DNA from: Squalus acanthias
Lineage: Eukaryota
NCBI GenBank assembly: GCA_030390025.1
Contig: CM059431.1
Location: 153,638,001-153,702,000, forward strand
Direction: 5' to 3'
Length of the DNA: 64,000 nucleotides
In this document: positions 2,976 through 39,400 of the stretch, one piece after another
Layout: each line of letters begins with the position of its first letter
Position numbering within the stretch: position 1 is the stretch's first letter
Translations under genes and position numbers: made by a program
The notes under the pieces: generated by a model
Told to the model about the DNA's origin: nothing
Database searches by the model: none
Seen by the model: the letters and a program-made list of their open reading frames with translations, nothing else

Positions 2976-3855
2976 TTAATTCTGCATTTTATTAACCAAT
3001 ATCAGAATCAATGTCCAGGGAGATTTCACCACCTTCACCAAATCTTGCCTGAATTTGGTTTGTGTCGCTGCATAAATGCAGGTGTCTGTACAGGAACTCA
3101 AATACATGAGCATAAATCCGCTTTCAGACAGGATGTATGCAGGGGTTTCATACTCACCTTTGTAATAAACGGCCAGGCTGTTCTTCAAGTTACTAACGAC
3201 AGATGTACAGTGAACAGTAAAATGATGGACTTCCTCCGGCTCTCCATCTCTGGATCGCTCTGATTCTCACTGCAGTGACCCCGGAGTCCCCTGCGGGCCC
3301 TACTGCTTATTACAATTCGTCTGACTGTAAAACAATTAAACAGTAATATCAAAGCAACAGCAGACCATGGAACTAAAATATTTTGAATGCGGAAATAGGC
3401 TATGCCTGCAGGCGATGAATAAAAGGCTTCACTGGTGCGGCATCCCCAGGAAACATTGTTAATGATTCGTTGAGATTCATAGGAGAAAGCAAAGGGGATA
3501 TTCTCAATACAGACCAGCACAAGGACAGTTATTAAAACTGCGGCCGCAGTTCTCACTGTGCAATACTTTGTTTTAAACTTCTGACAACATATAGTTACAA
3601 ATCGATCAAAAGTGAACAAGGCTGTAAACCACACCGACATATCCAGGGTGACGGTATTGATGTAATGAATGGACTTACACACGGCAGTGTAGGACAGGAA
3701 TGAATGCGGAAAATGTGAACAGAAAATCTGAAACACCAGTATATGGAAGATGATGACCAGTAGATCTGCTGTCGCCATGGCCACCATGTAGACCGAGATA
3801 CATTTGGAAAGGCCGCAATTTCCTCTGGAGAGAATCAGGATTGTCAGTAGGTTCG
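2976..3855 (-). pseudogene. GPR139/GPR142-like class A GPCR copy 1, exon 2 (frameshifted in TM6)
   Basis: Acceptor cttacag| then ANLLTILILSRGNCGLSKCISVYMVAMATADLL...FTFDRFVTIC...RRKSIILLF. About 27-31 nt are missing at 3206/3207 relative to copy 2. TM7 and the C-terminus (SCTDTCIYAATQTKFRQDL) lie in another frame, ending at 2976. Confidence 0.85.
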
Positions 3856-3996
3856 CTGTAAGGAAGAGGGAGAAGAATTTAGTAACAGGGACACCCGGAT
3901 AAACCTCACAGCTTATTGTGGGGAATGCTCAGATATGTCCCTACTTAGTGTTACTACATTGATTTGTTGCCATATAGTCGAGCGTTGAGGAGCAGA

Positions 3997-18452: not shown

Positions 18453-19287
18453 GTAAGTCAGTGAATCCTGTTGTCTGATGGCTGTTGACTATCTCAGTGT
18501 TAATGATTATGTAATGATTCTCAGAATGTCCTCATTGCAGAGTCACTGATCCATCGGGATAAGTTGGTGAATTTCAGTGGGAATCCAACTAGTCCACGCG
18601 GCTGGTGAGGCTGGTTGGTAGATCGTGGGTGCTGGGCGCTCGCCTTTCCTCCCTGTACTGAGGGAGGGCGAAGCTGACATTCCCCGGCCCCTCCAACAGT
18701 ATAGAGATCACTACAGGATGTGTTGCTTCCTGTGGATAGTAATCACATCAGTTGTACACTTGTACCCTGTTTATTTTACGTTGATAATTGCTCGGACTGC
18801 AGACACCTCCACCCAACAGGGGACTTTGAAAGATACTTTCAGCAATAGTTGCCGCTCCGGAGCTGCTCCACTCCCCTCGGCTGCAAAGAACATTCGCGTC
18901 TCCACCAGCTCCAGCTCTGTTACTGAGCAGCTCCCCCACCCTCCCGGGGCGATTGTGCATAGAAAAAGCGCGGAGTTTCGACCTAAATTCAATGATGTTC
19001 TCGCAACTGAATGCTTCGTTTGAATTTATATCTTTGCAGTAATTGCTGTGAAAATATACTTGATATTTGGCGATGTCTGTCTGAAGTCTGCAGGGATGGG
19101 CGGCGGATTTTCAGTCCCTCTATATTGGTTGTTCAATTTTTTTTTTTTTAAAAAGCTCTTCGTTAACGCTCGGCTATATAATTAAAAATCCGCCTGCATA
19201 GGGACACATCTGCACATTTCCCCACAACATGGTGTGAGATTTATTCGACTGTGCCCGTTACTGACCGCTTGTCCCTCTTTCTTACAC

Positions 19288-20189
19288 CGAACCTACTGAC
19301 AATCGTGATTCTCTCCGGAGGAAAATGTGGTCTATCCAAATGTATCTCTGTCTACATGGTGGCCATGGCAACAGCAGATCTACTGGTCATGATCGTCAAT
19401 GTGCTGCTGTACCGCGTTTTTACATATCACTTTCCAAAGTCATTCCTCAGTTACACTGCCGCCTGTAGGTTGCTTATATACTTGAATGCTGTTGCCCTCG
19501 ATATGTCCGTGTGGTTTACCGTCACCTTCACATTCGACCGCTATGTCGCGATAAGTTGTGAGAAGTTTAAAACGAAATATTGCACAGTCAGAACTGCGGC
19601 CGTCGTCATAACAACGGTCTCTGTTCTGCTCTGGTTGGACAATATCCCCTATTCGTTTGCATATGAAGCTGACCGAATAATTAACAATATTCACTGGGGT
19701 TTGCCGCTTGAAAATTGGCTTTTTTACCACGTCTGCTGGTACAGCATTCATCTGGTTAGAAAGTGTTTTAAGTGTAGGGCTTCCTTTCGCTTTGGTATTA
19801 CTGTTTAATTGTTTGACAGTCAGACGTATTTTAGTGGCCAGTAGAGCCCGCAGGAGTCTCCGGGGTCACAGCACTGAGATTCAGAGCGATCCAGAGATGG
19901 CGAACCGGAGGAAATCCATCATTTTACTGTTCAGTGTAACAGGTAGTTTTTTGGTTTTTGGCTGACATGTATCGTTAGTTATGCAATTAACACCCTGGTA
20001 ATTTTTGATCGTAGCGATTATACATCTCCTGCATACATCGCCTCTGCAAGCGGATTTATGCTCATGTATTTGAGCTCCTGTACAAACACGTGCATTTATG
20101 CAGCGACCCAAACCAGATTCAGGGAAGAGCTGGTGAGATTAGTGAAATCTCCTTGGACATTGATTCTGAACTTGGTTAACAAAATATGA
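19288..20189 (+). pseudogene. GPR139/GPR142-like GPCR copy 2, exon 2 (acceptor AG>AC, two frameshifts)
   Basis: NLLTIVILSGGKCGLSKCISVYMVAMATADLL...FTFDRYVAISC...SCTNTCIYAATQTRFREEL, stop TGA at 20187-20189. Frameshifts at ~19700 and ~19950-19959. Acceptor reads cttacac instead of cttacag. Confidence 0.85.
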
Positions 20190-23445: not shown

Positions 23446-26173
23446 ATAGATACATAGATACATAGAACAGTACAGCACAGTACAGGCCCTTCGGCCCTCG
23501 ATGTTGTGCCGAGCATTGTCCGAGACCAAGATCAAGCTATTACACTCCCTATCACTCTGGTGTGCTCCATGTGCTTATCCAATAACCGCTTGAAAGTTCC
23601 TAAAGTGTCCGACTCCACTATCACAGCAGGCAGTCCATTCCACACCCCAACCACTCTCTGAGTAAAGAATCTACCTCGGACATCCCTTCTATATCTCCCC
23701 CCATGCACCTTATAGTTATGCCCCCTTGTAACAGCTGCCTCTACCCGAGGAAATAGTCTCTGAACATCCACTCTATCTATCCCCCTCATCATCTTATAAA
23801 CCTCTATTAAGTCGCCTCTCATCCTCCTCCGCTCTAAAGAGAAAAGCCCCAACTCCCTCAATCTTTCCTCATAAGACCTCCCCCCCAAACCAGGCAGCAT
23901 CCTGGTAAATCTCCGTTGCACTCTTTCCAATGCTTCCACGTCCTTCCTATAGTGAGGTGACCAGAACTGCACACAATATTCCAAATGTGGTCTCACCAAG
24001 GTCCTGTACAGTTGCAGCATAACCTCACGGTTCTTAAACTCAAACCCTCTGTTAATAAACGCCAACACACCATAGGCCTTCTTTACTGCTCTATCCACTT
24101 GAGTGGCAACCTTCAGAGATCTGTGGATATGAACCCCCAGATCCCTCTGCTCCTCCACGTTCCTCAGAACCCTGCCGTTGACCCTGTAATCCTTATTCAA
24201 ATTTGCCCTACCAAAATGAATCACCTCGCACTTATCAGGGTTAAATTCCATCTGCCATTTTTCGGCCCAGCTCTGCATCCTATCAATGTCTCTTTGCAGC
24301 CTACAACTGCCCTCCACCTCATCCACTACTCCACCAATCTTGGTGTCATCAGCAAATTTACTGATCCACCCTTCAGTCCCCTCCTCCAAGTCATTGATAA
24401 AAATCACAAACAGCAGAGGACCCAGCACCGACCCCTGTGGCACACCGCTGGTAACTGGTCTCCAGTCCGAAAATGTTCCATCCACCACCACCCTCTGCCT
24501 TCTATGAGATAGCCAGTTACTTATCCAATCGGCCAAATTTCCCTCTATCCCACAACTCCTTACTTTCTTCATGAGACGACCATGGGGAACCTTATCAAAC
24601 GCCTTACTAAAATCCATGTATACGACATCAACTGCTCTACCTTCATCTACACACTTAGTTACCTCCTCAAAGAATTCAATCAAATTTGTTAGGCAAGACT
24701 TACCCTTCACGAATCCGTGTTGACTATCCCTGATTAAGTTGCCCCTTTCCAAATGGTCATAAATCCTATCCCTCAGGACCTTTTCCATTATCTTACCAAC
24801 CACCGAAGTAAGACTAACCGGCCTATAATTACCAGGGTAATTCCTATTTCCTTTCTTGAAGAGAGGAACAACATTCGCCACTCTCCAGTCCTCTGGCACC
24901 ATCCCCGTGGACAGTGAGGACCCATAGATCAAAGCCAAAGGCTCTGCAATCTCCTCCCTTGCCTCCCAAAGAATCCTAGGATATATCCCATCTGGCCCAG
25001 GGGACTTATCGACCCTCAGGTTCTTCAAAATTGCTAAAACATCTTCCCTCAGAACATCTACCACCTCCAGCCTATCCACCTTTATCACACTCTCATCCTC
25101 AAGAACATGGCCCCTCTCCTCGGTGAACACTGACCAAAAGTATTCATTCATCACCTCTCCTATCTCTTCTGACTCCATGCACAAGTTCCCACTACTGTCC
25201 TTGACCGGCCCTACCCTCACCCTGGTCATTCTTTTATTTCTCACATAAGAGTAAAAAGCCTTGGGGTTTTTCTTGATCCGACCCGCCAAGGACTTCTCAT
25301 GCCCCCTCCTAGCTCTCCTAAGCTCTTTTTTTAACTCATTCCTTGCTACCTTGTACCCCTCAATCGACCCAACTGAACCTTGTTTTCTCATCCTTACATA
25401 CGCTTCCTTTTTCCTCTTGACTAGACATTCAACCTCTTTTGTGAACCATGGTTCTCTCACTCGGCCATTTCCTCCCTGCCTGACAGGGACATACCTATCA
25501 AGGACACGCAGTAATTGCTCCATGAAAAAGCTCCACTTTTCGTTTGTGCCTTTCCCTGATAGTTTCTGTTCCCATCTTATACTCCCTAATTCTTGCCTAA
25601 TCGCATCATAATTACCCCTCCCCCAATTAGAAACCCTGCCCTGCCGTATGGCCCTATCCCTCTCAATTGCAATAGTGAAAGTTACCGAATTGTGGTCACT
25701 ATCTCCAAAGTGCTCTCCCACATACAAATCAAACACTTGGCCCGGTTCATTACCCAGTACCAAATCCAATGTGGCCCCACCTCTTGTCGGCCTATCCACA
25801 TATTGTGTCAGGAAACCCTCCTGCACACACTGTGCAAAAACTATCCCATCCGAACTGTTTGACCTATAAAGGTTCCAATCAATATTTGGAAAGTTGAAGT
25901 CACCCATGACAACTACTCTGTGACCTCCACACCTATTCATAATCTGCTTTGCAATTTCTTCCTCCACATCTTTATTACTATTTGGGGGCCTGTAGAAAAC
26001 TCCTAACAACGTGACCGCTCCTTTCCTATTTCTAACTTCAGCCCATATTACCTCAGACGGCAGATCCCCCTCGATCTGCCTTTCTGCCGCTGTTAAACTA
26101 TCCTTGATTAACAATGCTACTCCTCCACCTTTCTTACCAACTTCCCTACTCTTACTGAAACATCTATACCCCG
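23446..26173 (-). mobile_element. Young 5'-truncated CR1 LINE with uninterrupted ORF2
   Basis: 860-aa ORF plus 3' UTR and (gtatctat)n tail at ~23446-23465. Confidence 0.97.
23532..26114 (-). CDS. CR1 ORF2 (partial APE endonuclease + reverse transcriptase)
   Basis: MGDFNFPNIDW, LDLVL, SDH, KSPGPDG, NYRPVSLTS, GVPQGSVLGPLLF, KFADDTK. The frame stays open to the truncation at ~26173. Confidence 0.93.
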   Translation of the reverse strand: MLIKDSLTAAERQIEGDLPSEVIWAEVRNRKGAVTLLGVFYRPPNSNKDVEEEIAKQIMNRCGGHRVVVMGDFNFPNIDWNLYRSNSSDGIVFAQCVQEGFLTQYVDRPTRGGATLDLVLGNEPGQVFDLYVGEHFGDSDHNSVTFTIAIERDRAIRQGRVSNWGRGNYDAIRQELGSIRWEQKLSGKGTNEKWSFFMEQLLRVLDRYVPVRQGGNGRVREPWFTKEVECLVKRKKEAYVRMRKQGSVGSIEGYKVARNELKKELRRARRGHEKSLAGRIKKNPKAFYSYVRNKRMTRVRVGPVKDSSGNLCMESEEIGEVMNEYFWSVFTEERGHVLEDESVIKVDRLEVVDVLREDVLAILKNLRVDKSPGPDGIYPRILWEAREEIAEPLALIYGSSLSTGMVPEDWRVANVVPLFKKGNRNYPGNYRPVSLTSVVGKIMEKVLRDRIYDHLERGNLIRDSQHGFVKGKSCLTNLIEFFEEVTKCVDEGRAVDVVYMDFSKAFDKVPHGRLMKKVRSCGIEGNLADWISNWLSHRRQRVVVDGTFSDWRPVTSGVPQGSVLGPLLFVIFINDLEEGTEGWISKFADDTKIGGVVDEVEGSCRLQRDIDRMQSWAEKWQMEFNPDKCEVIHFGRANLNKDYRVNGRVLRNVEEQRDLGVHIHRSLKVATQVDRAVKKAYGVLAFINRGFEFKNREVMLQLYRTLVRPHLEYCVQFWSPHYRKDVEALERVQRRFTRMLPGLGGRSYEERLRELGLFSLERRRMRGDLIEVYKMMRGIDRVDVQRLFPRVEAAVTRGHNYKVHGGRYRRDVRGRFFTQRVVGVWNGLPAVIVESDTLGTFKRLLDKHMEHTRVIGSVIA

Positions 26174-26470
26174 GAGCAGGAGGGTCGGTAACCAGAGGAC
26201 ACAGACTGAAGGTGATTGGCTAAAGAACCAGCAGCGAGATGAGGAGAACTTTTTGTGTGCAGTGAGTTGTAATGATCGGGAATGCACTGCCTGAAAGGGT
26301 GGTGGAAACAGAATCAATGGTTACTTTCAAAATGGGATTGGATAAAGACTTGAAGGGGAACATTTTACAGGGCTACGGGGAAAGGGCAGGGGAGTGGGAC
26401 TAATGGGATAGCGCTTTTAAAGAGCTGGCACAGGCACAATGGGACGAAAGGCCTTGTAAAAGCTTAAAAG

Positions 26471-27107
26471 ATAAACCAAATTTTAAAGGAGAATCTGAAT
26501 GCCTCCAGTGAGGCCGCACGAAATGATGTTTGTGTCATGTATGGATCTTGGTTCGTGGTAGAAGCCCGTGAAAACCTGCAGAGCACTGCTGAGGGGAACT
26601 CCTCTTGTGGGTGACTGATCGACAGCTGAGGGCAATGTCCACTTCTCAATTTACCATGAATATGTGTAAAGTCAAGGGGTTGGTACAGGTGTACCATGAA
26701 ACATTACCGCCATTTGCATGAACAGAAGGACATCACCTACTTAGGGACGGTATTGCATTATCCCATTCTGCATGAAAAGGCAAACCCTAAATCCTCTATT
26801 CCGTGTGGAGAATATAGCAGTACGACAGGGAGACGACTTAATAAGGTATGAAGAACCCCCGCAGTAGGTGACCCGAGTGGATGTGACCACATGGGTGGCC
26901 TCAGATCTTACCGAGTGCGCTCAAGCTCGGGGTACATTCATCTGCCCTTATGACGTGGTAGAACACGCAGCACATGCGTGCGGATTTGATTGGGATGGGA
27001 TACAATGGAACCGCACCATGAAAATAGTTGTAGGAAAGCTCTTCCCCGTACAGTGTGCGTACCGAGGAAAAGGTGAGTATTGTGTCAACAACATACACCG
27101 GGAATAC
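26471..27107 (+). pseudogene. Degraded viral class I fusion (paramyxovirus-F-like / lokiretrovirus-type env) fragment
   Basis: Stitched translation across several frameshifts and two stops: INQILKENLNASSEAARNDVCVMYGSW...LGTVLHYPILHEKANPK/PLFRVENIAVRQG/..LIRYEEPPQ*VTRVDVTTWVASDLTECAQARGTFICPYD...CGF...AYRGKGEYCV. Similarity judged by eye only. Confidence 0.5.
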
Positions 27108-29670
27108 CATAAGAACATAAGGAATAAGAGCAGGAGTAGGCCATACGGCCCCTCGAGCCTGCTCCACCATTCAATAAGGTCATCGCTCATCATCGAACTC
27201 AACTCCACTTTCCCGCCCGATCGCCATATCCCTTGATTCCCCGAGAGTCCACAAATCAAACTATCTCAGCCCTGAATATACTCAAAAACTCAGCATCCAA
27301 AGCCTTCTGGGGCAGAGAATTCCAAAGATTCACAACCTTCTGAGTGAAGAAATTCCTCCCCATCTCAGTCTTAAATGGCCTACCCCTTATCCTGAGACTA
27401 TAGCCCCTAGTTCTAGATACTCCAGCAAGGGGAAACAACCTGTCAGCATCTACCCTCTCAATCCCCGTCCGAATCGTGTACGTTTCAATGAGATCACCTC
27501 TCATTCTTCTAAACTCCATGGAGTATAGGCCCATTCTACACAATCTCTCATCTTAGGACACACCTCTCATCCCAGGAATCAATCCAGTGAAACTTGGTTG
27601 CACCGTCTCCAAGGCAAGTATATCCTTCCTTAGATAAGGAGACCAAAACTGTGCACAGTACTCCAGGTGTGGTCTCCCCAAGGCTCTGTACAATTGTAGC
27701 AAGCCTTCCTTACTCTTACACACCAACCCCCTTGCAATAAAGGCCAACATGCCATTTGACGTCCTTATTGCTTGCTGTCCCTGCATGCTAGCTTTCTGTG
27801 TTTCATGCACGAAGACACCCAAATCTCTATGAACACCAACATTTGAAAATTTCTCACCAGTTAAAAAATATTCTGTTTTTCTATTCTTCCTACCGAAGTG
27901 AATAACCTCACATTTCCCTACATTATACGCCATCTGCCACCTTATTCCCCACTCACTTAGTCTATCTATATCCCTTTGCAGACTCTTTGTGTTCTCCTCA
28001 CAGCTTACTGTCCCACCTAGCTTTGTATCACCAGCAAACTTGGATACATTACACTCGGTCCCTTCATCTAGGTCATTAATATAGATTGTAAATAACTTAG
28101 GCCCCAACACTGCTCATGGTGGCACCCCACTAGTTACAGCCTGCCAACCTGAAAAACACCCATTTATCCCTACACTCTGCTTTCTCTCCATTAATAAATC
28201 CTCTATCCATACTATTATATTATCCCCAACCCCATGAGTCCTAATCTTGTGTAATAACCTTTTATGTGGCACCTTATCGAATGCCTTTTGGAAATCCAAA
28301 TATACTACATCCACTGGTTCCCCTTTATCTACCATGTTAGTTACATCCTCAAAAAACTCTAATAAATTTGTCAAACACGATTTCCCTTTCACAAAACCAA
28401 GTTGACTCTGCCTAATCATGTTATGATTTTCTAAGTGCCCTGATACCACTTCCTTAACAATGGATTCCAGCATTTTCCAGACGACTGACGTCAGGCTAAC
28501 TGGCCTGTAGTTCCCTTTTTTCTCTCTCACTCCTCTCTTGAATAGCGGTGTTACACTTGCGACCTTCCAATCTGCTGGGACCATTCTAGAATCTAGGGAA
28601 TTTTGGAAAATCAAAACCAATGCCTCCACTATCTCTTCAGCCACCTTTTTAAGAACCCTAGGATGTCGGCCGTCAGATCCATGGGATTTATTGGCTTTTA
28701 GTATCATTAGTTTCTCTCGTAATTATTCTCTACTGTTATTAATTACGTTAAGTTCCTCTCCCTCATTAGACCCTTGATTCCCCACCATTTTTGGTACGCT
28801 TTTTGTGTCTTCTACTGTGAAGACAGATACAAAATATTTGTTTAACGTTTCCGCCATTTCCTTATTCCCCATAATAATTTCTCCTTTCTAAGCCTCTAAG
28901 GGACCAACGTTTACTTTTGCCACTCTATTCCTTTTTATATACTTGTAGAAGCTCTTACAATCTGCTTTTATATTTCTTGCTAGTTTCTCTCATATTCTAT
29001 TGTTTTACCTTTTTATCAATGTTTTGGTCATTCTTTGCTGGTTTCTGAAACTTTCCCAATCTTTAGATTTAACATTATTCTTCGCAACATTATAATCTTC
29101 TTCTTTCAATCTAATACTATCCTTAACTTCTTTAGTTAGCCACGGTTCGATCACTTTTCCTGTGGAGTTTTTTTTCTCTCAATGGAATGTATTTTTGTTC
29201 AGATTTATGAAATATTTCTTTCAGTGCTAGTCACTGCTTATCTACTGCCATACATTTTGATCTATTTTTCAAATTTACCTTCGCCAAATCGCCCATCATA
29301 TCTATGTAATTGTCTGCATTTAAGTTTAATACTCTAATCGGACTTTGGCAAATCACTCTCAAACTTAATGTGAAATTATATCATATTATGATCACTCTGC
29401 CCCAGAGGGTCTTTACTATGAGATTGATAATTAACCCTGTCTCATTACACAATACGAGATCTAAAATAGCTTAAAATAACGTTTCAAGTCTGACGAAGGA
29501 TCATCGACCTGAAACATTAACTCTGTTTCACTCTCCACTGATGCTGCCTGACCTGCTGAGTGTTTCCAGCATTTTCTGTTTTTATCTAAAATAACCTATT
29601 CCCTTGTTGGTGCATGACGTATTGTTCTAGGATACTGTCCCGGATGCATTCCATGAATTCGTCCTCCAGA
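27108..29670 (-). mobile_element. CR1 LINE (frameshifted ORF2 + 3' UTR)
   Basis: ORFs 27256-27543, 27553-28110 and 28114-28707 are consecutive RT segments. Tail cataagaacataag at 27108. Confidence 0.95.
29471..29585 (+). mobile_element. Short Penelope-derived repeat with degenerate hammerhead motif, inserted in CR1
   Basis: ctgacgaaggatcatcgacctgaaacattaactctg...gctgcctgacctgctgag...ccagcattttctgttttt, flanked by a duplicated atctaaaata(g/a)c. Confidence 0.65.
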
Positions 29671-35329: not shown

Positions 35330-36080
35330 GGAAGGTATTCACACACACAGGAACAGGTTCTGACATACACAGAGACAGATAGGGACAGGTACTGACATAC
35401 ACAGGGACAGGTACTGACATACACAAGGACAGGTACTGACATACACAGGGACAGGTACTGACATACACAGGGACAGGGAGGGACAGGTACTGATATAAGC
35501 AGGGACAGATAGGGACAGGTATTGACATACACAGGGACAGATAGGGACAGGTACTGACAGACACAGAGACAGGTAGGGACAGGTACTGACATGCACAGGG
35601 ACAGAGAGGGACAGTTACTGATATAAGCAGGGACAGATAGGGACAGGTATTGCCAGACACAGAGACAGGTAGCGACAGGTACTGACATGCACAGGGACAG
35701 GTAGGGACAGATACTGACATACACTGGGACAGCTAGGTACAAGTACTGATATCAGCAGTGACAGGTAGGTACAGATACTGAAATAGATAGTGACAGGTAA
35801 GGACAGGTACTTAAATAGACAGGTACAAGTGGGGACAAGTACTGATATACACAGACACAGGTAGGGATAGGTACTCACGCAAGGACAGTTAGGAACAAGT
35901 ATTGGCACATACAGAGACAGGTCCTGACATATATGGGGACAGCTATGGACAGGTACTAGCACATACACAGAAAGGTACTGACATACACGGGGACAGGTGT
36001 AGAAGTTACAGACATGCAGACGGTCAGGACGGACAGGAAATGACATGCACATTTAGGGACAGGTTCTGACATGCACAGGG
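35330..36080. repeat. Minisatellite, ~22/32-bp units (acagggacaggtactgacatac)
   Basis: Direct tandem repeats with 10-bp subunits. Confidence 0.9.
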
Positions 36081-37998
36081 ACAATTATCAAGCATGTCCC
36101 ATCAATTATCAAGCATGTATTTTCAATTATCAAGCGTGTATTATCAATTTTAAAGCGTGTATTATCAATTATCAAGCATGTCCTTTCACTTATCAAGCAT
36201 GTATTTTCAATTATCAAGCGTGTATTATCAATTTTCAAGCGGGTCCTATCAATTATCAAGCGTGTATTATCAATTATCAGGCGTGTATTATCAATTATCA
36301 AGCATGTCCTATCAATTATCAAGCATGTATTATCAATTATTAAGCGTGTATTATCAATTCTCAAGCGTGTATTATCAATTCTCAAGCATGTCCTATCAAT
36401 TTTCAAGCGGCTCCTTTCAATTATCAAGCGTGTATTATCAATTTTCAAGCAGGTCCTATCAATTATCAAGCGTGTATTATCAAATCTCAAGCATGTCCTA
36501 TCAATTTTCAAGCGGCTCCTATCAATTTTCAAGCGTGTATTATCAATTATCAATCATGTATTATCAATTTTCAAACGTGTATTATCAATTATCATCCGTG
36601 TATTATCAATTATCAAGCGTGTATTTTCAATTATCAAGCGTCTTTTATCAATTCCCAAGCATGTATTATCAATTATCAATTGTGTATTATCAATTATCAA
36701 GCGTGTATTATCAATTATCAAGCATGTATTATCAATTTTCAAACGTGTATTATCAATTATCAAGCGTGTATTATCAATTATCAAGTGTGTATTATCAATT
36801 ATCAAGCGTGTATTATCAATTATCAAGCGTGTATTATCAACTGTCAAGCATGTATTATCAATTATCAAGCATGTCCTATCAATTATCAAGCATGTCCTAT
36901 CAATTCTCAAGCGGGTCCTATCAATTATCAGGCGTGTATTATCAATTATCAAGCATGTATTATCAATTATCAAGCGTGTATTATCAATTATCAAGCATGT
37001 ATTTTCAATTATCAAGCGTGTCCTATCAATTATCAAGCGTGTATTATCAATTATCAGGCGTGTATTATCAATTATCAGGCGTGTATTATCAATTATCAAG
37101 CATGTATTATCAATTATCAGGCGTGTATTATCAATTATCAAGCATGTATTTTCAATTATCAAGCGTGTCCGATCAATTATCAAGCGTGTATTATCAATTA
37201 TCAAGCGTGTCCTATCAATTATCAAGCGTGTATTATCAATTATGAAGCGTGTATTATCAATTATCAAGCGTGTATTATCAATTATCAAGCGTGTATTATC
37301 AATTACCAAGCGTGTATTATCAATTACCAAGCATGTATTATCAATTATCAAGCAAGTATTATCAATTACCAAGCGTGTATTATCAATTATCAAGCGTGTA
37401 TTATCAATTATCAAGCGTGTATGATCAATTATCAAGCAAGTATTATCAATTACCAAGCGTGTATTATCAATTATCAAGCGTGTATTATCAATTACCAAGC
37501 ATGTATTATCAATTATCAAGCATGTATTATCAATTATCAAGCGTGTATTATCAATTATCAAGCGTGTATTATCAATTATCAAGCAAGTATTATCAATTAC
37601 CAAGCGTGTATTATCAATTATCAAGCATGTATTATCAATTATCAAGCGTGTATTATCAATTATCAAGCGTGTATTATCAATTATCAAGCTTGTATTATCA
37701 ATTATCAAGCGTGTATTATCAATTATCAACCATGTATTATCAATTATCAAGCGTGTATTATCAATTATCAAGCGTGTCCTATCAATTATCAAGCATGTAT
37801 TATCAATTATCAAGCATGTATTATCAATTATCAAGCGTGTATTATCAATTATCAACCATGTATTATCAATTATCAAGCGTGTATTATCAATTATCAAGCG
37901 TGTCCTATCAATTACCAAGCATGTATTATCAATTATCAAGCGTGTCCTATCAATGACCAAGCGTGTCCTATCAATTACCAAGCGTGTATTATCAATTA
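36081..37998. repeat. 21-bp minisatellite (~90 units, tatcaattatcaagcgtgtat)
   Basis: Highly homogeneous tandem array. Produces the 7-aa-period ORFs in the track. Confidence 0.97.
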
Positions 37999-38861
37999 CA
38001 AGCTGCCATTGCGGGTTAGCGAGGAGATGTCGGTGTTGTTAAGCTGAAGAAACTCCCAGCTCTTAAAACACTTGCAAAATTTGGGACACCACCCGTTTCC
38101 CCTTTTGACTTCCAGTTTACCGTTGCGGCCTTTTTTAACGGTCACTGCGATGCCCTTGCACCCATTCGTTGCCAGAGTGATTTTGCGCCAGCTCCACTTA
38201 TTCCCCTTTACCCACAATAACGTGCTTTTGACCTTAAAAACCTCAATGGGCGGAATGAGGACCTCTTCTTGTTTCGGGAAGGACGAGAATGCACTGATTG
38301 GAACCCCCAACTTGGTCTCTATTTCAAAAAGCGTGTTTTCCGCTGTAGAATGGCTCATGAATTGTTTCGCTACCTCCAGCTCCAAAGAGGACGAAGCGAA
38401 TTGTCCCAGTCTGACGTTACCTCCCGTCTTGGCATTGAATGGAATGCTAGTTCCCCTATAGGTCTTACGCTTATTGCTCTTTAACTTATCCAGGGCGACG
38501 GAGAGGAGGTAATGGAAGCTTTTGAAGTGGAAACTCCTCTTATAGATGGCGTCACTTACGCCGCACTCCCTGACTGCGGTGTTAAACTCACTGTACAATG
38601 GGGACTGTTGAGTGTAAGCGTGAATTGCCATCAGGTGCTCCCTTTTCAAACCGCGCGGGATTTCATAATTTGGCCCAATAGATTTGCTTGCATTATTCCA
38701 CACATCAAGCAAGTGTTTTCTCTCAGCCCATTCCTTTCTGATGTAACCAATCGCCGCCTCGTCGGCTGCCGGGGTCTGAGTGAAGATGTAAGCGGCAGAG
38801 TTCATCGCCATGTCCAGTTCGATGGTTTGGTCTCCAGCTGTAAAAGCTAGAGTGCTCCGAT
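37996..38861 (-). CDS. Ecto-ADP-ribosyltransferase (ARTC family), catalytic exon
   Basis: Acceptor ctttgtttcacag| at 38861. Motifs LDMAMNS, AIHAYT, LYSEFNTAVR, FHFKSFHYLLSVAL, TYRG, RLGQFASSS, TLFEI, FSSFPKQEEVLIPPIEVFKV give the R-S-E fold. No disablements. The true 3' end is uncertain. Confidence 0.93.
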
Positions 38862-38942
38862 CTGTGAAACAAAGCGGGTTGTTCTGACAATTCATAATGG
38901 AGGAAATAATGGAACATAAGATAGAAAAAGTTCCAGTAAATG

Positions 38943-39400
38943 TTTTTTATTTATTCGTTCACCAGTTGTGGGCGTTGCCGGCAATGCCAGCATTTATTGC
39001 CCATCCCTAGTTGCCCTTGAGAAGGTGGTGGTGAGCCGCCTTCTTGAACCGCTGCAGTCCTTGTGAAGGTGTTCCCACAGTGCAGACTTTGTCGTAGAGG
39101 TTTGTTACAACTGAGTGGCTTGCTAGGCCATGTTAGAGGGCAGTTAAGAGTCAACCACATTGCTGTGGGTCTGGAGTCACATATAGGCCAGACTGGGTAA
39201 GGGCAGCAGATTTCCTTCCCTAACGGACATGGTTTCATGGTCACCAATTTGTCACCATTACTGAGACCAGCGTTCTTTTTTTTAATTTCAAATTTATTTT
39301 AGTGTATTTAAATTCCACAGCTGCTGTGGTGGGATTTGAACTCACGTCTCTGGATCATTAGCCCAGGCCTCGAGATTACTAGCCCAGGAACATACCATAT
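38943..39400. mobile_element. LINE 3' end / SINE-like fragments in the ART intron
   Basis: 38950-39080 matches 59675-59815 (gccagcatttattgcccatcccta...gagaaggtggtggtg). Confidence 0.7.

Follow-up and report, generated by a model that had tools for sequence, protein, structure and literature searches.

A truncated env fragment between CR1 elements in the Squalus acanthias genome points to a retrovirus family with a predicted F-like envelope protein

Introduction

Retroviral envelope proteins (Env) that resemble F proteins are known from foamy viruses and lokiretroviruses, and endogenous retroviruses (ERVs) like snakehead retrovirus (SnRV) are known from cartilaginous fish. According to the accessible part of Fernandez et al. 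(PMC11468914), foamy virus Env is built on the same structural core as the F proteins of paramyxo- and pneumoviruses and belongs to subclass Ib. Lokiretroviruses were defined by the position of their reverse transcriptase (RT), and the available sections of Wang and Han (PMC7947760) list no cartilaginous fish for them (zero of six chondrichthyan genomes, figure S1). The same sections weigh four scenarios and leave unsettled if F-like Env is an ancestral trait or one confined to lokiretroviruses. SnRV-related lineage I ERVs occur in the elephant shark (Han 2015; PMC4422223, in part), and clade Huo, the SnRV-related clade, has a wide host range according to the available portions of the sources on SnRV and this clade (PMC6001957, PMC8922424, PMC12193657, PMC2717909, PMC13517186).

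The window analyzed here is a 64-kb (64,000-nucleotide) stretch of contig CM059431.1 of Squalus acanthias (positions 153,638,001 to 153,702,000, forward strand). An initial annotation, made from the letters of the window, proposed that unique sequence between two CR1 elements hides a fragment of an F-type viral fusion protein, a candidate lokiretrovirus-like env. The reading preferred here is that the fragment is a non-coding, truncated env piece of a multi-copy LTR retrovirus family (family A), that the RT of this family belongs with canonical retroviruses (likely clade Huo), and that its Env is predicted to be F-like, class Ib. The probability of this reading is put at roughly 0.85.

Results

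The env fragment and its reading frames

A string of F-type-like motifs was found on the + strand at 26462-27109, read across four successive frame pieces. It included the motifs named in the initial annotation: INQIL..C..YGSW (26471-26596), LHYPIL (near 26764), and LFRVENI..PQ*V..DLTEC..GTFICP..C..EYCV (26790-27109). The annotated location was therefore right; the annotated ends (26471..27107) were not exact, and the true fragment comprised 648 bases. The fragment and its pieces were as follows:

26462..27109, + strand: env fragment of family A, truncated and broken (last part of the long central helix and Cys-rich beta head of a predicted F-like fusion subunit), identified by genome matches, profile, and homology to the modeled sister env
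26462..26596, + strand: first frame piece, helical, INQIL...CVMYGSW...AEG; 45% identity to the sister env, model helix 158-219
26597..26789, + strand: middle pieces, WVTD..LRAM..CKV and ..ITYLGTVLHYPIL; frame changes near 26.60, 26.70, and 26.79 kb
26790..27109, + strand: last frame piece, 107 codons, with an in-frame stop at 26865-26867; beta-rich head VENIA..DL.EC..FICP..CG..EYCV

Another copy has a natural env frame of 409 aa without stops, which the fragment matched at E 9e-33 and 3e-62; the coherent, Cys-patterned stretch of about 200 aa described initially corresponded to its residues 122-335 (about 214 aa). A profile of 33 database proteins, built from other records only (i.e., without the five rows from the own genome), gave two matches in the six frames of the window (52.9 and 19.9 bits). 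Both lay within the fragment, and the best score in the reversed-window control was -27.3 bits. The last frame piece alone matched the env alignment with a probability of 99.3 (E 4e-20). The coding signal in the fragment is real and far above chance. Within 26462-27109 there was no signal peptide, cleavage site, fusion peptide, HRB, or membrane anchor. Because it encodes only the helix end and the head, with three frame changes and one in-frame stop, the fragment is most likely a non-coding scrap without function today.

Family A proviruses

The sequence was not unique. In the own-genome DNA search 40 of 335 first-look candidates were scored, and all 40 matched at 87-100% identity: the fragment itself, four matches at 95-97% on the same contig, and 35 matches at 87-90% elsewhere. 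DNA identity to env genes inside LTR proviruses was 88-90% over the full fragment length. A genome search for copies linked to pol and LTRs, as suggested with the initial annotation, found env copies inside LTR pairs with gag and pol pieces upstream. The proposed endogenous viral env remnant thus has homologous copies that sit in LTR-gag-pol-env elements.

Other copies of family A extended in both directions and contained natural stop-free env frames of up to 409 aa. These frames included a basic cleavage site that varied among copies, a GL(I/V)ND...FNTG fusion-peptide-like segment, a long heptad region, a Cys-rich region, a second helix, and a membrane anchor. Pieces of gag, PR, RT, tether, RNase H, and IN were found upstream of env. 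A TAG directly preceded the protease frame in all four copies checked, the upstream frames of which were broken. The element ended in TG...CA with a 4-bp target duplication (L027), and its primer site matched host tRNA-Lys(TTT) (two of the three loci checked contained the tRNA).

Three LTR pairs of family A had 96.1% (L021), 98.6% (L027), and 93.3% (L033) identity. Literature substitution rates of 2.2e-9 and 2.2e-10 per site per year dated these pairs to 3-15 or 30-150 million years, a range across the two rates too wide for the ages to be reliable. Four copies (L021, L027, L031, L032) were internally deleted to gag-PR-IN-env, with most of RT and RNase H missing and both LTRs kept; L031 and L032 were tandem copies. 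Internal deletion with retention of both LTRs in many family A copies suggests spread in trans.

Family B proviruses

A second family (family B) was represented by an element that adjoins one family A copy by chance. Its env was 37-45% identical to the window pieces. The family B element encoded gag (620 aa), an in-frame TGA, pol (RVP, RVT_1, RT_RNaseH tether, RNase_H, and rve), and an 838-aa env frame. Dual RNase H (tether and RNase H) was present in family B, with matching pieces in family A. The family B Gag contained one CCHC zinc knuckle (PF00098 E 0.33) and, by eye, a coiled-coil-like N-terminus; Env contained an RQRR cleavage site and a signal peptide recognized by eye. The LTRs were 1614 bp long and 99.88% identical, with a 4-bp target duplication (L028/L059, L061-L090). 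The primer site matched host tRNA-Arg(TCG) at all three loci checked. The 3' motifs of tRNA-Arg(TCG) and tRNA-Lys(TTT) had 426 and 271 matches, respectively, and long tandem arrays of both motifs, spaced at 1.6-1.8 kb, were found on contigs C26, C29, and C2208.

Family B env copies were nearly uniform: all 136 matches scored (8467 candidates) were stop-free over 287 aa and about 100% identical. A 26-mer from this env had 370 exact genome matches vs. none for a control, indicating at least 370 copies of this 26-mer. Among 28 gap-free copies of 29, counting changes outside the search query, the N-terminal part of env had 50 synonymous and 28 non-synonymous distinct changes (dN/dS-like ratio 0.17), and the C-terminal part had 41 and 10 (ratio 0.07). 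These ratios are biased low because the copies sampled were the top-scoring ones. They fit purifying selection and a spread that needed Env. Contigs of both families also occurred in three sequencing runs that were guessed to be RNA and in which RNA and DNA were indistinguishable.

Env homologues and predicted Env fold

A match to the fusion glycoprotein family PF00523, a check proposed with the initial annotation, was found in none of five window pieces, six family A frames, one sister env, and 46 homologues. Among the Pfam fusion families there was one weak Baculo_F match, in one of the 46 homologues (E 0.001). A phmmer search of PDB with the 409-aa family A frame returned coiled-coil noise only (best E 0.38). 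In word-index homologue searches none of 4100 candidates was scored for the 409-aa frame and three of 5723 were scored for the sister env, while a full HMMER search recovered 49 env homologues. Eight of ten homologues looked up could be named, and came from sharks (Mustelus, Chiloscyllium, Heterodontus, Pristiophorus) and frogs (Xenopus, Pelodytes, Mantella); a skate homologue (Rhinoraja) came from a separate search with the sister env. The closest named relatives were those of Rhinoraja, Pristiophorus, Mustelus, Chiloscyllium, and Heterodontus.

One cluster (P0167) held 16 near-identical env homologues from the frog Mantella aurantiaca, most of them 677 aa long, a sign that this env type underwent another recent expansion. 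Four further proteins (P0003, P0004, P0129, P0159) were annotated gene models of sharks (cadherin-like, Niban-like, zinc finger, fbxo15) into which env pieces are fused. These are probably annotation artifacts or exonization.

An env profile of 38 rows (33 homologue proteins and five frames of the own genome) had two PDB matches under E 0.001, both to foamy-virus Env (8rm1, 1e-4; 8rm0, 6.5e-4). The last piece of the fragment aligned where the profile matched foamy-virus Env (profile positions 223-385). With PF00523 unmatched, the link to F was visible only by profile search and fold.

The fold was predicted for the sister family B env, which is 37-45% identical to the fragment, rather than for the fragment itself. 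An AlphaFold (AF2) model of family B env residues 281-838 reached pLDDT 73 and pTM 0.54. In Foldseek against PDB all 36 matches listed were paramyxo- or pneumovirus F proteins (best E 1.2e-11, TMq 0.38, 14% identity). In VIA-align ranks 1-14 were F proteins or foamy Env, namely NDV F (Z 11.5, rmsd 19.0, 368 aligned), RSV F (Z 9.0, rmsd 5.4, 283 aligned), and foamy Env (Z 8.4, rmsd 5.8, 270 aligned) among them, and the first unrelated structure had a Z of 6.2. Because the TM-scores were modest and the rmsd large, the match is one of domains and not of the whole conformation. Among predicted viral structures, the model matched lispivirus G, baculovirus F, paramyxovirus F, walleye epsilonretrovirus Env, and feline foamy Env.

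The model contained the elements of the F structural core: pre-cleavage strands, fusion peptide, long helix, beta domains, HRB, and TM. The fragment mapped to model residues ~180-397, which cover the last part of the long helix together with the beta head. The initial assignment of the fragment to the head region that follows HRA in F-type fusion proteins is in this way upheld through relatives, by the foamy Env profile match and by the structure match of the sister env to class I F proteins. The Env of families A and B is accordingly predicted, on the model, to be an F-like class Ib fusion protein. A gamma-type retroviral Env, with CX6CC, an immunosuppressive domain, and a short TM subunit, was considered and rejected. 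CX6CC was absent from both env frames tested, so this Env is not gamma-type, and the post-cleavage subunit was about 450 aa long and beta-rich in the model.

By homology and established F biology, a precursor bearing a signal peptide would be cut at the basic R-x-x-R site, which would expose the fusion peptide GL(I/V)ND...FNTG. The long heptad helix and the Cys-rich beta head would then refold with the membrane-proximal helix into a trimer of hairpins, and this trimer would fuse the viral and cell membranes. Trimer formation and membrane fusion by this Env are inferred by analogy. A weakly Ig-like N-terminal module may be the attachment part: Pfam Ig matches had E 0.51, 0.0085, and 0.045, and the database name of the Chiloscyllium homologue is also Ig-like. 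A single-sequence fold of the N-terminal 238 aa gave no usable model (pLDDT 35). The module (L059:3147-3860, L017, L020, L052) carried a C...W...(D/H)EGIYxC pattern, was divergent between the families, and was built differently in some frog and shark homologues.

RT phylogeny

Families A and B were placed on two RT trees. The quick tree contained 113 rows, with 108 of 120 RT matches long enough to be used; the careful tree contained 29 chosen rows, with two eel RTs from one species as the lokiretrovirus side and SnRV outside the set. The two families were sisters (100/100), near RTs from Xenopus and coelacanth. In the careful tree they fell inside the canonical retroviruses (99/98), the deep nodes of which were poorly settled, apart from the eel rows and gypsy elements. 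They lay outside the gamma/epsilon-like clade that contained other shark ERVs. An RT search of viral contigs found no relative.

The family B RT motifs were APTVA, LPQGF, QYVDD, and GFKVNPKK, and family A frames agreed where intact. The SnRV row shown by Wang and Han (PMC7947760, in part) reads YPTVA, LPQGF, QYVDD, and GVKINPKK. Their lokiretrovirus rows, from the same accessible portion of PMC7947760, read LSRWPM or MSGWPV, CPFGY or MPFGY, xYVDD, and GAKxS; two eel proteins among the 120 RT matches carried these motif states. From motifs compared by eye and from Han (2015), with SnRV outside the tree, both families would likely belong to clade Huo. This placement agrees with the clade's wide host range and with the occurrence of lineage I in the elephant shark.

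It is unlikely that the families are recombinants, in which a clade-Huo-type backbone received its env from a lokiretrovirus or from the F gene of a negative-strand RNA virus, so that the F-like Env would not be ancestral. The best structural matches were Mononegavirales glycoproteins and not retroviral Env, and env/pol swapping is frequent in anamniote retroviruses according to the available part of a preprint (bioRxiv 2021.11.23.469661), both as such an exchange would have it. Set against this, the sole significant sequence-level match among solved structures was foamy Env, epsilonretrovirus and foamy Env also matched the model, and the spread of env homologues over sharks, skate, and frogs, with RT neighbors in Xenopus and coelacanth, would fit long co-inheritance.

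A lokiretrovirus env, which would be the first in cartilaginous fish and which the initial annotation had favored, is very unlikely. The F-like env architecture and the dual RNase H agree with the published lokiretrovirus description. Dual RNase H is, to our knowledge, common to all retroviruses and so is not specific to lokiretroviruses. With only six chondrichthyan genomes screened in the accessible part of Wang and Han, lokiretroviruses of cartilaginous fish could have been missed. The RT evidence opposes this origin: a single clade of families A and B with the two eel loki-type RTs was rejected by the AU test (p-AU 0.0097), the RT motifs differed from the lokiretrovirus rows, and PQGFHNSP had no match in the available supplement text of Wang and Han (PMC7947760). 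In addition, lokiretrovirus Env matches PF00523 at 2.2e-7 in the portion of PMC7947760 at hand, whereas the env frames here did not match it. The quick RT tree had first been read as loki-like, a reading ruled out by the Loki and SnRV alignment rows and by motif counts. A baculovirus-F or errantivirus origin was also rejected, as the RT is retroviral and not gypsy. The available part of one preprint describes invertebrate env-carrying elements without vertebrate homologues.

Genomic context of the fragment

Both flanks of the fragment were CR1 3' ends, as initially described. Three CR1 elements surrounded it:

23447..26175, - strand: younger CR1 with a long open ORF2 frame; window copy only, absent in four of four paralogues
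26176..26457, + strand: older CR1 LINE, 3' tail adjoining the left end of the fragment; common to four paralogous blocks
27110..29175, - strand: CR1 LINE, 3' tail adjoining the right end of the fragment; common to four paralogous blocks

The initial observation that no gag, pol, or LTR lies nearby held for family sequences across the 64-kb window. There, tblastn found no match to sister-family gag or to either of the two pol parts, and two LTR-bearing family copies matched the window at 26462-27109 only.

Including the fragment, there were five paralogous pieces, each truncated and set between CR1 elements. The other four, all on contig C7, were truncated in the same way and carried both CR1 flanks (95-96% identity). 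The block was duplicated at least five times within ~3 Mb of contig C7, and the younger CR1 (23447-26175) entered the copy in the window only. From the shared truncation and flanks, and the lack of the younger CR1 in the paralogues, the likely order of events is provirus, CR1 insertions and loss, block duplication, and new CR1. A family A provirus would have integrated in a GPCR gene cluster; CR1 elements would then have come onto both sides with their 3' ends facing env, and the remainder of the provirus would have been lost, the order of these steps being deduced from the present arrangement.

Two paralogous rhodopsin-family GPCR frames were found in the window, at 3188-3928 (- strand) and 19182-19805 (+ strand), with 7tm_1 matches of E 5e-13 and 3e-10. 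In view of these frames, the fragment and the duplicated block that surrounds it are probably part of a receptor (GPCR) gene cluster. The window also contained, at 37999-38946 (- strand), a frame whose domain matched NAD:arginine ADP-ribosyltransferase (PF01129 E 1e-47) and which is likely an ecto-ART exon of the host, and at 36050-38040 an AT-rich tandem repeat of ~2 kb with stop-free frames on both strands.

Co-option of the fragment by the host, whether as an exon or as a regulatory element of the GPCR cluster, is highly improbable. Its retention in five paralogous blocks and the related env pieces in annotated shark gene models (fbxo15, Niban-like, cadherin-like) would be in keeping with a host role. 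However, its 648 bases are interrupted by three frame changes and one stop, and the whole CR1-flanked block was common to the paralogues at 95-96%, so the fragment travelled passively. If CR1 machinery had copied a paramyxo- or pneumovirus-like RNA virus sequence into the genome as a free-standing element, this would account for CR1 on both sides and for a window without gag, pol, or LTR, but the probability of such an origin is negligible given the 88-90% whole-length DNA identity to env in LTR proviruses and the 9-16% identity to F proteins in structural alignments.

Discussion

The fragment is dead scrap and matters only as a pointer to its family; in itself it adds a small case of CR1 truncation and segmental duplication. 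Read as a truncated env of family A, it leads to a third RT lineage with F-like Env, in frogs as well as in the jawed vertebrates that diverged earliest; this would favor an old and widespread F-type retroviral envelope. A wider reading, held tentatively and at somewhat under even odds, has four parts: the clade Huo (SnRV-related) retroviruses of sharks, rays, and frogs may form a further F-like class Ib Env lineage; they may have their own small Ig-like attachment head, for which the module at the Env N-terminus is weak evidence; the F-type fusogen may be an ancestral retroviral envelope, shared with foamy, loki, and epsilon Env; and one lineage may be spreading very recently in this genome with its env under purifying selection. 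With trees of env and of RT, the question of ancestral vs. special F-like Env becomes testable. Such elements would escape any screen that depends on a canonical TM motif.

No published report of an F-like Env on a clade-Huo backbone was found in a search to which most subscription journals were external, and no paper was found that states whether SnRV Env is F-like. The available parts of PMC12440569, PMC12583693, PMC13709493, PMC10435555, and PMC9040795 do not describe this env or retrovirus family. Preprint supplements and the full Wang and Han supplement were outside the literature comparison, and sequence sets there could contain the lineage.

Comparison with known systems

In predicted fold and order of elements, the Env of families A and B is like paramyxo- and pneumovirus F (PF00523), lispivirus G, and baculovirus F. 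It differs from paramyxo- and pneumovirus F in its low identity (9-16%), in being carried by a retrovirus, and in ~230 extra N-terminal residues.

Foamy Env (8RM0/8RM1) was the only significant PDB profile match, over the region of the fragment, and aligned with the model at Z 8.2-8.4. Foamy Env has a large receptor-binding insert between the subunits, whereas the Env here has a small extra module at the N-terminus. Foamy virus Gag is not known to have a zinc knuckle, nor foamy pol to follow gag in frame; here, Gag has a zinc knuckle and pol is in frame after gag.

Lokiretrovirus Env, as presented in the available sections of PMC7947760, also has a signal peptide, basic cleavage site, fusion peptide, coiled coil, and TM, and is related to paramyxo- and pneumovirus F. 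The same sections give lokiretroviruses a gag-pol-env layout with LTRs and dual RNase H, as here. Lokiretroviruses are further characterized by an RT clade sister to canonical retroviruses and by an integrase closest to CGIN1. The families described here differ in RT lineage, in the absent PF00523 match, and in their host, lokiretroviruses having been found in none of the six chondrichthyan genomes.

SnRV and clade Huo share several features with families A and B. Compared by eye, the RT motifs DISNGFWS, LPQGF, QYVDD, and G.K.NPKK were the same, and gag and pol form one frame with a stop between them. SnRV also has one zinc knuckle and a coiled-coil-like N-terminal Gag, and the hosts of clade Huo include cartilaginous fish (elephant-shark CmiERV lineage I). 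The gag-pol stop is UAG in SnRV vs. TGA in family B, and the Env tail is 136 aa in SnRV vs. ~35 aa in family B. SnRV has accessory ORFs and complex splicing, and it uses a tRNA-Arg primer; the primer site of family B matches tRNA-Arg(TCG), and that of family A matches tRNA-Lys(TTT).
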